A stretch of 63,563 bases of DNA, counting the filler, from Kipferlia bialata (taxonomy: Eukaryota): assembly GCA_003568945.1 (NCBI GenBank). It is 6 parts of 6 records of this genome, joined end to end, with 100 filler letters (N's around TTAATTAATTAA, not from the genome) between each part and the next. Parts side by side here need not be neighbours in the genome. Positions count along the whole stretch, not along the records: positions 13,584 to 27,062 come from BDIP01000942.1; positions 27,163 to 40,625 come from BDIP01000943.1; 4 more parts are not named here. One strand, written 5' to 3'. A program made the position numbers and the translations under genes. Each line of letters begins with the position of its first letter. Position 1 is the first letter of the stretch. Below, piece after piece: positions 26,660-39,052 of the stretch. The notes beneath the pieces were generated by a model. It did not search any database and was not told the DNA's origin. It saw nothing but the letters and a program-made list of their open reading frames with translations.

Positions 26660-27265
26660 TTGCATAACCGCAGTAAATTAGCTAATTGTTTTTGTTGAGT
26701 TGTGTGTGTTGACCGGTTGTCTGCTGTAATTCTTTGATACACGACAAAAAATCTGTGTTGACCTGTTTCAGGATGTTTAAGTGGTTGTTTGGATAGTGGA
26801 GGATGGCTTACAGTGAAGTCAGCCACTCTTTGCCAACCTCATTTTTACTTCTTGACTATTGTCTTGCCCAGTGGCTGTTGGCGACACCCAAATGAACAGG
26901 GCTCGTTGGGCTGATTGTTGCAGTGGTGCAATGTATTACCTTGTCTCTAGGCTCTGCTTATATGACGTAAATGGAACAATAGTCTGAATCATTGATAGGG
27001 GTCCAGAAACATAGTTTGGGAACACTACGTAGTGTTTTTTTCCACGTAGTGTTTACTATGTGNNNNNNNNNNNNNNNNNNNNNNNNNNNNNNNNNNNNNN
27101 NNNNNNTTAATTAATTAANNNNNNNNNNNNNNNNNNNNNNNNNNNNNNNNNNNNNNNNNNNNTCGTGGGGGGCCTAGCCTTCCTAAGTGTGAAACCCTTA
27201 TCCTCATCTTTGTACATTGCGAGAGACCTCTTTTTGACAAAAATGTTTGTTTGCTATATATAACA

Positions 27266-27469
27266 ATGGAGCACAAGATCAACGAGGAGCTCGAAAAGCT
27301 GGACAAATGGTTCAACCACACAGCACACACAGGATTCTCCTATGAGGACCATAGTAATGGAGTGTTTGAATATGAGTACTCCAAACATGAAAAGATATTA
27401 GACAACCTAATCTCACATGCAAAGATCCATTTTCCAGATATATTAGTAGACTTGATTGCACTACGATAG
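27266..27469 (+). CDS. PLV small hypothetical protein
   Basis: 67-aa ORF MEHKINEELEKL... preceded by the element's CTATATATA motif. Confidence 0.55.
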   Translation: MEHKINEELEKLDKWFNHTAHTGFSYEDHSNGVFEYEYSKHEKILDNLISHAKIHFPDILVDLIALR

Positions 27470-27516
27470 TTGTGTAACTATTGTAATTTATTTGGCATCT
27501 ATATATACATACTTCG

Positions 27517-28266
27517 ATGGACGATAACGACTACAATTATTCCAACGCCGAAGACCGTACTATGCGTAATGTTGATTACCTACTCAGTCCACATAGCAGC
27601 AGCTTATATCAGAAGAGCTTAGTGATTGGTGATGCGGGTGCCGGAAAAAGCTACTTTATAGATGAGCTGATACGGTATTACATACGATTCCCAGGCCCCT
27701 ACCGATTCGTCTATATTGTCGGGCCAACCATTAAGCAATACAAGGACCTGATACTATATACCGATTACGTGAATAAGCAGAAGGGCACCAAACACAAACT
27801 GGAGAAGCGTGAATTTGCCAGGCTCGGAGTGCAGCTGATTAGGAGTATTACGACCGACTACGATTTACTTGAGGATGTAACTGATAGCATTATTATATTT
27901 GATGACATCAGTGCGAAGGAGCAGAAATTGGCAGACCAGATCATCCAGGTGAGTCGTAACAACAAGAATATGGTGTTCAATCTGATCAAGAACTCAGACT
28001 ATCTAAAGCGTTCAACCTTCACCCAGTACAACACATTTATCATGTTCAAGACTTCTCACGACCTGGCCTTCGAACGTCTCTATGATATCACACTGGCTAA
28101 GGTGAATGATAAGAAGAATATCAAGAAGCTGTACAACACAATCAGTGACAGAAAGAACAAGCACAGCAAATTCATTGTTAACACTAACGGAGACACACCG
28201 GCATTGGTGTACTTCATATTGGATAAGGATAATGCTCTGTTCATCGACCAAAGCTTGGAGTTTTGA
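27517..28266 (+). CDS. A32/FtsK-like DNA packaging ATPase
   Basis: Walker A LVIGDAGAGKS, Walker B SIIIFDD and arginine-finger-like QVSRNN. The 249-aa length is typical of PLV/Polinton ATPases. Confidence 0.85.
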   Translation: MDDNDYNYSNAEDRTMRNVDYLLSPHSSSLYQKSLVIGDAGAGKSYFIDELIRYYIRFPGPYRFVYIVGPTIKQYKDLILYTDYVNKQKGTKHKLEKREFARLGVQLIRSITTDYDLLEDVTDSIIIFDDISAKEQKLADQIIQVSRNNKNMVFNLIKNSDYLKRSTFTQYNTFIMFKTSHDLAFERLYDITLAKVNDKKNIKKLYNTISDRKNKHSKFIVNTNGDTPALVYFILDKDNALFIDQSLEF

Positions 28267-28318
28267 AAGGGTATTTATTATTTAATATTTTCTGGCGTGA
28301 TACATATACAGAGGTAAC

Positions 28319-28732
28319 ATGACTATCATTACCATCAAGACAGCAGGAGACGTACTCCCAATTGTGACCAGACGCGGTGTGCTTGAGCCACTGAAGGAGA
28401 TGCTGACTACACTGGATCGTGTGAAATGGATCTCTAACCACTGCGATAATCCGGGTGAATATGAGAGTATTTGCATTGACGCACGGTATTTGAGACGGCT
28501 TGGTGTACGTATTACACTCAACGGGGAATACGACATAGCCACCATTGACCCAATGGTTTTCCAGAGAATACAGTATCCTCACAGAGATGAACTCCCTGAT
28601 ATCTCCCGCAAGGAGGGTGAGAGCGTAGAAGCTTACCAAAAGAAGCGTTGTGATGCTTCCAGAACCAGAAATATACAGAGGCAGGAGATGATGAGTGTCG
28701 AGCTTAACTTTGTCATAACTGTCTTTGACTAA
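28319..28732 (+). CDS. PLV hypothetical protein
   Basis: 137-aa intronless ORF that fills the gap between the ATPase and the YR. Confidence 0.6.
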   Translation: MTIITIKTAGDVLPIVTRRGVLEPLKEMLTTLDRVKWISNHCDNPGEYESICIDARYLRRLGVRITLNGEYDIATIDPMVFQRIQYPHRDELPDISRKEGESVEAYQKKRCDASRTRNIQRQEMMSVELNFVITVFD

Positions 28733-28769
28733 ATACAGTAATTTTTTACGCCCTAAAAAATATATACAG

Positions 28770-37282: not shown

Positions 37283-37326
37283 GTCAGCCGCTGTATATAT
37301 ATAAGGGCGAAAAAATATAATATTAC

Positions 37327-37518
37327 TTACAATGTATTCATAGTAATATTGGAAGCACTCCCATACTTGCGACGTAGAGAACGCTCGTGGCTCGCCCGTC
37401 TGCGTGCAACGAATTCGGGGTCTGTCTTCCGGGAGGCATAGTAACGGCGGTGGTATGCTGCAACGCTACTTCGATCACTCCAATCCGTAACTGTTGGTGT
37501 TGGTGTTGGTGTAGTCAT
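37327..37518 (-). CDS. Small basic PLV protein
   Basis: MTTPTPTPTVTDWSDRSSVAAYHRRYYASRKTDPEFVARRRASHERSLRRKY, arginine-rich. Confidence 0.5.
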   Translation of the reverse strand: MTTPTPTPTVTDWSDRSSVAAYHRRYYASRKTDPEFVARRRASHERSLRRKYGSASNITMNTL

Positions 37519-37557
37519 CTTGTATACATACGGATTGATGTACATAATTACATTTGG

Positions 37558-38241
37558 TTAGAATATTGGTATCTCATTGTTGGTGTCATTCTCTGTCGGA
37601 GTGCTGATGAAGTAGTATACGAAGACAAGTGATTCCAGAAGATTGCAGAGCCCATAGGATATGAGTGGGGCATATATATCAAAGATGAATAGATTGTACT
37701 GCACGAAGAACAGTATATTCAGCCCCAACGTTATTTTGAAGCGCCGTCTGGTGTACAGGGCATGTTCAGAGTTATAGTTGCCCATGGCTACAACTGATGC
37801 TGTCAGCCATATTATCTGTGAAGTCGTAAGTACTGAGTATATGACTTCCAAGTCAATGGTCGGAGCTATCACTGCTAAGAAGAGACAAATATACTTTGCT
37901 ACAGTGGTTAGCCTGCTGTCCTTCGTGATTTCTGAGGACGCGTTCAGGATATGGACAATGGACAATGAATATGTGATGGCACACATCATTCTCGCCAGAA
38001 CTGCCTCACTAGTATTATCGTTACCTGGAATGTAGTAGCTGGACTGAAAATTCTTATATGCACACAGCTGGTAGTATAGCACAGCAGCAGATAGTGTTGA
38101 CACTTGTAGCTTGTCACCAACAGTTAGATTCATTAGATTCTTGGCAACCAGCACCAACATGACTAACTCTGTAGCAATAAATAGCCCAGCATAATCGAAC
38201 AGATACTTCTCTGTGAAGGTGGCGAAGGAAATGAAGATCAT
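37558..38241 (-). CDS. About 7-TM membrane protein, microbial-rhodopsin-like layout, no retinal lysine
   Basis: 227 aa with about 7 hydrophobic segments. By-eye alignment to bacteriorhodopsin helices C (LARMM), F (RRFKITLGLNILFFVQYN) and G (YGLCNLLESLVF). Confidence 0.5.
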   Translation of the reverse strand: MIFISFATFTEKYLFDYAGLFIATELVMLVLVAKNLMNLTVGDKLQVSTLSAAVLYYQLCAYKNFQSSYYIPGNDNTSEAVLARMMCAITYSLSIVHILNASSEITKDSRLTTVAKYICLFLAVIAPTIDLEVIYSVLTTSQIIWLTASVVAMGNYNSEHALYTRRRFKITLGLNILFFVQYNLFIFDIYAPLISYGLCNLLESLVFVYYFISTPTENDTNNEIPIF

Positions 38242-38308
38242 GCAAGTATATAGTATTTAATTCTTTTATTTTATTTCGGTGTCACGCATATATAGAACCC
38301 GCACATCG

Positions 38309-39052
38309 ATGGTAGTTAACATTGACACACGCACACCCGACCCTACTGCGGTCGCCAAGGCAGACATTGATATGTCAGAGCCTTCAGAGATTCCTGAGAG
38401 ATTTACCTTTCAAACCAAGTACCAGTTCGTTGAGGAGGATGATGAGGATGAGGCCTTTAATGTGATTACTCAAGCTGAGCTACAGAATACCATTGAGTCC
38501 TGTATTGCACCCGTATTCAAGATTCAGCTTACACGTAGGAAGGATTTGATCAAGACAGACGCAATTAAGTCTCTCATCAGCCATGAGGCTAGTATTAAGA
38601 TTGCACACTATAACGCTAAGCAGATGGTACTCGCTGCTATGGCTGACTTTGATGACCAGATGGATAGTCTGAACAAGACACTCCAGATATTCAGCTATGT
38701 ACTCGAGTATATGTCTATTGCCGAGCAGTACAAGCACTACTTTAAGGGCACTACCAGGAGGGACCTGATTCTGAGTCATATGTTCAATACAAAGAAGGTA
38801 TACTATGAGGGACAGGGGTCAACTGATTCACTGTTCAATATTGTGATTGACATCATTGAGGGTGTTATCGCTATTAACCGTAAGTCATTCAAGGTCAACT
38901 TCAATACCCAGACCTCATGCTTCTTTAGAACCCCCGATCAGAAGAAGAAGCTAGCCCTAGACAAGCAGAGAGATAGAGAGAGGAAGGCACACAACAAGAG
39001 AATTGCAAAGCTCCAGTTCAAGCTGGAGACAGATGTTATAGACTTTCATTAA
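38309..39052 (+). CDS. PLV hypothetical protein
   Basis: About 247-aa intronless ORF preceded by ATATATAG, with a basic coiled C-terminus. Confidence 0.6.
   Translation: MVVNIDTRTPDPTAVAKADIDMSEPSEIPERFTFQTKYQFVEEDDEDEAFNVITQAELQNTIESCIAPVFKIQLTRRKDLIKTDAIKSLISHEASIKIAHYNAKQMVLAAMADFDDQMDSLNKTLQIFSYVLEYMSIAEQYKHYFKGTTRRDLILSHMFNTKKVYYEGQGSTDSLFNIVIDIIEGVIAINRKSFKVNFNTQTSCFFRTPDQKKKLALDKQRDRERKAHNKRIAKLQFKLETDVIDFH

Follow-up and report, generated by a model that had tools for sequence, protein, structure and literature searches.

A virus-type gene cluster adjoining a spliced D5/SF3-type helicase gene in the fornicate Kipferlia bialata

The DNA examined here, called the window below, is a stretch of 63,563 nt made up of six contigs of the Kipferlia bialata assembly joined by linkers (N44-TTAATTAATTAA-N44). 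One of these contigs, 13,463 bp long (positions 27163–40625, with 27163 as its first base), carries a cluster of 14 viral open reading frames (ORFs) that is real and apparently intact. The most unusual feature of the locus lies next to it: part of a helicase gene of the D5/SF3 type that is spliced and is likely to belong to the same element. The virus is a very divergent one, an unplaced member of the supergroup of polintons, polinton-like viruses (PLVs) as well as virophages, in a host group for which the literature searched describes none. We favour, with a probability of about 0.6, the reading that the cluster and the helicase gene form one integrated, roughly single-copy provirus with ~18 kb between terminal repeats, in which the helicase gene is one of the element's own and serves its replication. 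K. bialata is a free-living fornicate for which 17,389 genes and 124,912 introns have been reported (PMC5874029).

The cluster of intronless ORFs

The interval 27266–39052 is filled by 14 ATG-started, stop-free ORFs of 67–500 aa, with a coding density of 94%:

27266–27469, + strand: ORF1, 67 aa, orphan of no credible family
27517–28266, + strand: ORF2, 249 aa, P-loop ATPase, likely an A32-type packaging ATPase (motifs)
28319–28732, + strand: ORF3, 137 aa, orphan
28770–30272, − strand: ORF4, 500 aa, likely tyrosine recombinase (motifs)
30330–31349, + strand: ORF5, 339 aa, orphan
31365–31934, − strand: ORF6, 189 aa, likely Ulp1/adenain-type cysteine protease (motifs)
31994–32734, + strand: ORF7, 246 aa, orphan immediately ahead of the capsid gene
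32788–34290, + strand: ORF8, 500 aa, double-jelly-roll capsid protein (predicted fold, relatives, fold of a paralog)
34337–35122, − strand: ORF9, 261 aa, unconfirmed candidate for the minor capsid (penton) protein (presumed C-terminal pattern)
35203–36381, + strand: ORF10, 392 aa, acidic orphan
36434–37282, − strand: ORF11, 282 aa, candidate fibre or surface protein (membrane segment and collagen-like repeat)
37327–37545, − strand: ORF12, 72 aa, small basic orphan
37558–38241, − strand: ORF13, 227 aa, at least four predicted membrane segments (hydropathy), no family
38309–39052, + strand: ORF14, 247 aa, orphan; the RNA contig of the helicase reaches over its final 243 nt

An earlier reading made from the sequence alone (the sequence-only reading) had described this block as dense, intronless and distinct from host DNA, and the comparison with the host ORFs of the window agrees. 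The G+C content at third codon positions (GC3) is 0.40–0.57 in the intronless viral ORFs and 0.58–0.79 in the host ORFs. A codon log-ratio is negative in all 13 viral ORFs tested (−0.07 to −0.56; ORF12 was excluded as too short) and positive in seven of eight host ORFs (+0.19 to +0.35). There are no introns in ~11 kb of viral ORFs, where ~80 would be expected at the genome-wide ~7 per kb of coding sequence (hand arithmetic from PMC5874029), though the contrast is limited by long intron-free host ORFs that are also present in the window. ORF14 has the most host-like codons of the set (−0.07), and in an exact-sequence look-up in a protein collection it alone had a deposited gene model, the other nine of the ten viral ORFs queried being absent. 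ORF14 may share the expression tier of the helicase.

The capsid gene gives the cluster its identity. ORF8 returned nothing of note from the Pfam and PHROG profiles. In a word search, one relative was found among 5,924 candidates, a metagenomic protein that is 65% identical (P0001, from a 1,511 bp contig), and a profile search of 1.84 billion representatives returned four relatives. Two of its relatives, P0005 and P0006, are metagenomic and about 20% identical, and a second K. bialata capsid gene, KIPB_004505 (P0004), which is 34% identical to ORF8, lies on a different contig of 13,285 bp. When an ORF8 model built from five sequences (predicted local distance difference test, pLDDT, 57.6) was used to query Foldseek, the top rows were all double-jelly-roll capsid proteins (best E values 1.2e-11 in the PDB and 5.4e-12 in the viral set), and the matches listed include the capsids of iridoviruses, PBCV-1, Sputnik, mavirus and adintovirus, and others. 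The top eight rows returned by VIA were also double-jelly-roll capsids, matched over the first jelly roll with Z scores of 8.9–6.9, of which a value near 8 is by itself middling. The Atlas model of the KIPB_004505 paralog matched PF21738 with a template modelling (TM) score of 0.74 over 384 residues. We conclude from these predicted structures that ORF8 is a very divergent double-jelly-roll capsid protein. The sequence-only reading had named a double-jelly-roll fold of this 500 aa ORF in advance as one of the points on which it would stand or fall, and Foldseek, VIA and the paralog fold all come out in its favour. With a gene model of K. bialata (P0003, database label KIPB_004421) on the same contig, the claim of a Preplasmiviricota-type virus, possibly in a metamonad, is also borne out.

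From sequence comparison, K. bialata carries two or more separate elements of the predicted ORF8 capsid lineage, one of them marked by KIPB_004505. Two or more such divergent capsid genes in one genome would mean that fornicates have their own lineage of these viruses, and the metagenomic capsids at 65% and about 20% identity indicate that relatives occur beyond the Kipferlia culture. No relatives were returned when ORF8 and P0005 were searched against metagenome contigs, or when the capsid, ATPase, recombinase and helicase were searched against viral contigs, in searches that see close relatives only. The contig bearing KIPB_004505 and the unitig that covers the element (see below) are both 13,285 bp, apparently by coincidence; each number was checked separately.

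The likely identities of three further ORFs, the ORF2 ATPase, ORF4 recombinase and ORF6 protease, come from motifs. ORF2 has a Walker A motif (GDAGAGKS at 38), a Walker B motif (IIIFDD at 125) and SR at 146. Its profile matches were to AAA only and below threshold (best E 0.0017), and no A32 family matched at E up to 1; the A32 assignment follows the motif layout that we take to be typical. ORF4 contains R186/187, K268, R348, H371 and Y380, with Gly in place of the usual first His of HxxR, and has a tail of acidic and basic low complexity. It matched Phage_int_SAM_1 (E 0.0044) and XerD (E 0.15) weakly, both below the cut-off, and a profile scan of the 14 ORFs gave no match to an RVE integrase. 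In ORF6, which had no profile or PDB match, H67, D84, Q117 and C125 are in what we take to be the clan-CE order. No library match for the ATPase, recombinase or protease reached the curated cut-off, and phmmer searches of the PDB with these and the penton candidate gave chance matches only.

ORF9 lies beside the capsid gene and has a C-terminal IDLRGERW pattern that is presumably of the penton type. It had no PDB or profile match, and its single-sequence fold failed (pLDDT 29.7), too poor for a fold search. In ORF11, one predicted membrane segment is followed by a short collagen-like repeat, which matched Collagen (PF01391) below the cut-off (E 1.4e-5) and through which tail-fibre PHROGs were also matched. 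There was no match to Rfam. Of the virion module that had been proposed (A32 ATPase, protease, capsid and penton), the capsid is therefore supported by its fold and the ATPase and protease at motif level, while the A32 assignment and the penton are unconfirmed by fold or profile.

The hexamer TATATA is found within 45 nt upstream of 12 of the 14 intronless ORFs (mean 1.0 and maximum 5 in 5,000 shuffles), and in 19 of 261 tiles in total. The hexamer may be either the host's TATA box or a late signal of a helper virus: the promoters of mavirus look like its giant virus's late motif, and that provirus stays silent until infection (10.1101/068312). ORF14 is represented in the RNA run by one 252 nt piece at depth 2.5. 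No RNA contig was found over ORFs 1–13, but contigs drop rare sequence, and silence of the virion genes cannot be read from this.

The adjoining spliced helicase gene

The sequence-only reading had the element occupy 27163–39052, consist of intronless ORFs and give way on the right to host DNA. These boundaries are wrong, and the element as a whole is likely not intronless. The left end is simply the break at which the contig begins, and the 1.57 kb to the right (39053–40625) contains, on the minus strand, the last 247 residues of an SF3 helicase of the D5/primase type, encoded with host-like codons and four introns, in a gene that is likely part of the element:

38810–39196, − strand: likely 3' untranslated part of the helicase RNA, through the 144 bp spacer into ORF14 (RNA contig)
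39197–39463, − strand: last helicase exon, 88 codons and stop
39464–39518, − strand: intron, 55 nt, GT-AG, spliced in the RNA contig
39519–39711, − strand: helicase exon
39712–39811, − strand: intron, 100 nt, GT-AG, spliced in the RNA contig
39812–39972, − strand: helicase exon encoding LNFISN (SF3 motif C) and GIRRR (arginine-finger region)
39973–40022, − strand: intron, 50 nt, GT-AG, spliced in the RNA contig
40023–40147, − strand: helicase exon with Walker B (KGKRFIVVEE)
40148–40625, − strand: 3' part of the fourth intron, at least 478 nt, with TA/AG microsatellites and ~100 bp tandem units; the contig ends within it

The helicase matched DUF5906 (E 3.6e-4), TIGR01613 (E 3.4e-5), primase PHROGs (E 1.7e-4 and 2.1e-3) and the African swine fever virus (ASFV) protein C962R (E 0.027). 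The matches from all four libraries fall on residues 14–144 and are weak, every one below its cut-off. Walker B, motif C and the arginine finger, to use what we take to be the names of the SF3 motifs, are in SF3 order. Walker A and an N-terminal primase or D5_N part would be encoded by upstream exons past the end of the contig.

Splicing was seen directly in RNA. An RNA contig of 1,692 nt aligns with the genome up to its position 1,135, and the remaining 557 nt represent further upstream exon beyond the contig. All three complete introns (55, 100 and 50 nt; GT-AG) are skipped in the RNA contig and none of the three in the DNA run, and the spliced frame is that of the deposited model P0003. The RNA contig departs from the genome at the acceptor of the fourth intron (loose end at 40149), where the next codons read KCFGMYHVT. 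It also spans the 144 bp spacer and 243 nt of ORF14, with 652 letters unbroken over 38810–39461. RNA contigs carry no strand, and we infer that of the helicase RNA. The intron density, four in 0.74 kb, compares with ~7 per kb of coding sequence genome-wide (hand arithmetic, PMC5874029), and the three complete introns are short and mutually unlike in length and sequence.

The ~100 bp tandem units of the fourth intron (40250–40625) are imperfect. A similar unit is found in the same run inside an intron of a second gene, a kelch-like one, and hints at a dispersed intronic repeat. A search for a second helicase of this type gave one match among 121 candidates, the gene itself, and no relatives were found among prokaryotic genomes, plasmids and phages in a search that sees close relatives only.

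Linkage, ends and copy number

Assembly of the DNA run produced one unitig of 13,285 bp (depth 451.8) that covers the viral genes and the helicase gene (27188–40472) with zero differences. This bears on whether another organism's virus has been joined to a host gene by misassembly or contamination. The assembly is of short reads and codon use shifts across the 144 bp spacer, as such a join would predict. However, the unitig, from a second assembly of reads, passes over the join unbroken and the RNA contig crosses it too, and for this reason misassembly was rejected. The neighbour is moreover itself a virus-type gene, and a second related capsid gene is present on another contig of the same genome. 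We regard an artefact of this kind as very improbable.

The features at the ends of the contig are as follows:

27063–27162: artificial, non-biological linker (N44-TTAATTAATTAA-N44)
27163–27217, + strand: last 55 bp of a 1,322 bp unitig, candidate inner end of a terminal repeat (depth 884.4, 1.96x)
40626–40725: artificial linker between contigs

A 2,521 bp unitig with a depth of 450.8 (1.00x) branches off the 1,322 bp unitig at 27218–27223. No copy of the left end was found between ORF14 and the helicase gene (best local score 8; no shared 18-mer), and any matching right repeat would thus lie past the helicase. The shape of the graph matches a single element with two terminal repeats, possibly of about 1.3 + 13.4 + 2.5 + 1.3 kb plus a gap.

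As the viral sequence begins at the first base of its contig, the host genes to its left in the window have no linkage to the viral ORFs. The contig that precedes it has long, intron-poor ORFs (14167–26660), among them a BRCT-like gene and a gene with armadillo-like repeats of 42 aa period. Two adjacent genes there resemble ribosomal proteins that we take to be S26 and S27. The linkers at 13484–13583, 27063–27162, 40626–40725, 54181–54280 and 60161–60260 create spurious repeats and spurious neighbourhoods.

Two off-target unitigs, matched by their likeness to the intron repeat, have depths of 448.8 (0.99x) and 907.8 (2.01x). In the first, an exon end, DTHTNTWT, precedes a GTAAG donor; we take this exon end to be kelch-like and the unitig to be from a host gene. 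Further short repeat unitigs, among those listed, are at 0.83x, 2.53x and 4.29x. The depths of the two off-target unitigs suggest about one copy of the element per genome. They also bear on the idea that the whole element, including the helicase gene, exists unintegrated, as an episome in the nucleus or as a free virus persisting in the culture. Such a form is in keeping with contig ends that are both assembly breaks with no host flank linked, with a unitig free of variants, and with the occurrence of a 65% identical capsid in a metagenome. An episome would need strict copy control, however, to hold a depth (451.8) so close to that of the intron-bearing off-target unitig and half that of the other, and the microsatellite-laden introns point to long residence in a chromosome, while the recombinase-like gene also speaks for integration. 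We consider a non-integrated form improbable. The claim that the virus is endogenous is likely, on the indirect support of the host-type spliceosomal introns and the depth of 452 against 449 for one off-target intron-bearing unitig, with the host flank missing from the contig.

We favour assigning the helicase to the element because its type is used by these viruses, because none of the 14 ORFs could be recognised as a replication gene, and because there is no boundary between ORF14 and the helicase gene. In addition, the 2.5 kb branch would have room for the 557 nt of exon still missing, together with introns and a promoter. In related viruses, tyrosine recombinases accompany PolA/AEP replicases (10.64898/2026.10.13.758929), which are often fused to SF3 helicases (10.64898/2026.06.19.733378). 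With only one such helicase found in a genome of 17,389 genes (PMC5874029), chance adjacency would be expected at ~1 in 10,000 (hand arithmetic).

A different history would make the helicase gene a domesticated relic of an older viral integration, now a host gene, beside which a younger, intronless virus without a replicase has inserted, either at the same attachment site or nested in the older DNA; the younger virus may use the helicase in trans. This would account for host-like codons and introns that are confined to the helicase. In Halocafeteria, additional insertions occur preferentially in viral DNA (10.64898/2026.07.28.741278), and some PLV genomes are reported to have no detectable replication gene (10.64898/2026.06.19.733378). 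On the other hand, no attachment-like or terminal repeat separates ORF14 from the helicase gene, the RNA contig is unbroken across the spacer, and the 2x repeat with a second branch of the same depth suits the two ends of one element. No orthologue of the helicase was found in another eukaryote, in weak searches. We consider a domesticated neighbour unlikely, though it is the explanation that most deserves attention after the single provirus.

In a single provirus, the tyrosine recombinase would integrate and excise the genome, and the helicase, to which 5' exons beyond the contig may add a primase part, would unwind the excised copy for replication in the nucleus. The ATPase, protease, capsid and penton proteins would build the particle. 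In the nucleus, host RNA polymerase II would transcribe the helicase gene, which through its long stay there would have acquired host-type introns and codons. The other genes, which share TATATA, would form a separately switched late set, transcribed where splicing is unavailable or unused, for example by a co-infecting giant virus as in mavirus.

Several points weigh against a single integrated provirus. The helicase codons (GC3 0.78, log-ratio +0.24) are host-like, as expected of a long-domesticated host gene. The recombinase would also be expected to act early, yet its gene is intronless with viral codons, which fits control in two tiers only if it is part of the late set. The argument from chance is weakened by the nested insertion into older viral DNA reported in Halocafeteria (10.64898/2026.07.28.741278). 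TATATA is palindromic and common to head-to-head pairs, and a fairer count finds it in 8 of 10 start-bearing and 2 of 5 tail-to-tail spacers. The ORF8 model is weak, with a full-length TM score of ~0.2 and both halves misplaced. No virus–host junction lies within the contig, both ends of which are assembly breaks. The terminal-repeat reading derives entirely from depth and graph shape; a two-copy host repeat would give the same shape, and the join of the 2,521 bp branch to the right end is not shown, since the 67 bp at 40559–40625 were skipped as repeat. Contig depth is not copy number, host depth is represented by the two off-target unitigs, one of which is possibly part of the element, and the DNA run, from the same sample as the RNA run, may be the assembly's own source.

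Relationships and implications

ORF8 gives the element the double-jelly-roll capsid of the Preplasmiviricota, at low model confidence with all top matches in agreement. As first defined, PLVs lack a maturation protease and an RVE integrase, and some have a tyrosine recombinase (PMC4642659). The assignment of a tyrosine-recombinase PLV in the sequence-only reading is upheld in part: ORF4 has the R-K-R-H-Y motifs of a probable tyrosine recombinase and no RVE integrase was matched in the portion of the element seen, which stops short of its right end, but a protease is untypical of PLVs in that definition. A PLV in the strict sense (PMC4642659) was rejected on account of the protease-like ORF6, itself recognised at motif level. 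A Maverick was set aside as well, neither pPolB nor RVE having been found in the 13.4 kb covered; what lies beyond is probably not long enough to encode both. As to a PgVV-like capsid, none of the four relatives from the profile search is named.

PLVs with a tyrosine recombinase and an SF3 helicase are like the element in having a double-jelly-roll capsid, a candidate penton and a candidate packaging ATPase (PMC4642659; 10.64898/2026.06.19.733378), a tyrosine recombinase for RVE, an SF3 helicase for pPolB, and a place in a protist genome. Their size class, 15–30 kb, fits if the missing end is as proposed. The element differs from them in its protease-like gene, the protease being core among the PLVs described only in the Gossevirus group, where the capsid is detected by the GKS1 profile; here the capsid had no profile match and only four relatives in 1.84 billion representatives. 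It also differs in its helicase with spliceosomal introns, such endogenous viruses being stated to contain none (PMC10120064).

Sputnik-like virophages have collagen-repeat and helicase genes. The element shares with them an ATPase, protease and tyrosine recombinase (PMC4642659), along with a capsid, an SF3 helicase and a collagen-like protein, and with endogenous mavirus an upstream motif common to most genes and possible terminal repeats (10.1101/068312). No virophage or Sputnik capsid family of Pfam matched in the element. In the paralog structure, polinton-type PF21738 was row 1 (TM 0.74) and a Sputnik-type capsid row 8 (TM 0.72), and the VIA rows were tied within 1 Z; on capsid structure, neighbours of the polinton type cannot be told from those of the virophage type, and the element is thus left unplaced. 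Sputnik-like virophages and mavirus have giant-virus helpers, whereas the element has no known helper. Endogenous mavirus is silent until infection (10.1101/068312), whereas the helicase gene of the element is transcribed and spliced in the sampled culture.

Trichomonas elements carry an RVE integrase. The Maverick-polintons and PLVs of the Metamonada (parabasalids, Streblomastix; PMC10120064) resemble the element in having a metamonad host and a divergent capsid confirmed by structure only. The element differs in its fornicate host and in having a tyrosine recombinase and an SF3 helicase rather than the pPolB of Trichomonas (PMC12220804), and none of the four capsid relatives is from Trichomonas or Streblomastix by name. 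In the PLV literature cited here, metamonad elements remain unplaced among the PLV groups. Spliceosomal-type introns also occur inside integrated elements in dinoflagellates, in introner-bearing polinton-like proviruses; there they are recent mobile introners (PMC12166617), whereas those of the element are in one gene with host-like codons and are spliced in RNA. Cryptophyte PLVs contain group I introns (PMC12220804).

In the literature searched, which did not extend to the supplementary tables of the 2026 bioRxiv preprints on PLVs, no DNA virus is described from Kipferlia, nor did a search for spliced PLV or virophage genes bring any up. The words 'virus' and 'viral' are absent from the text of the genome paper (PMC5874029). 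Table S1 of PMC10120064 names the Kipferlia genome among those searched, and the part of that table covered here has no other row for it.

As the host is in culture, the boundaries, excision and induction of the element are directly testable. Should the helicase prove to be part of the element, the assumption in PMC10120064 that such proviruses lack introns would be contradicted: the RNA then shows a viral replication gene spliced by the host beside intronless capsid genes, and surveys would misplace the boundaries of such elements and miss their replicases. A bolder reading, to which we give less weight, is that this is a still-functional provirus of a new fornicate-infecting lineage. Its host-like, intron-rich replicase would be expressed in latency, while its virion and integration genes, intronless and driven by TATATA, would wait to be triggered, for example by an as yet unknown giant virus that infects anaerobic protists. 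Were this so, the replicase introns would make the virus dependent on nuclear splicing and would hide such genes from the prokaryotic gene callers with which provirus surveys work, and some 'replicase-less' PLVs could be viruses of this kind.

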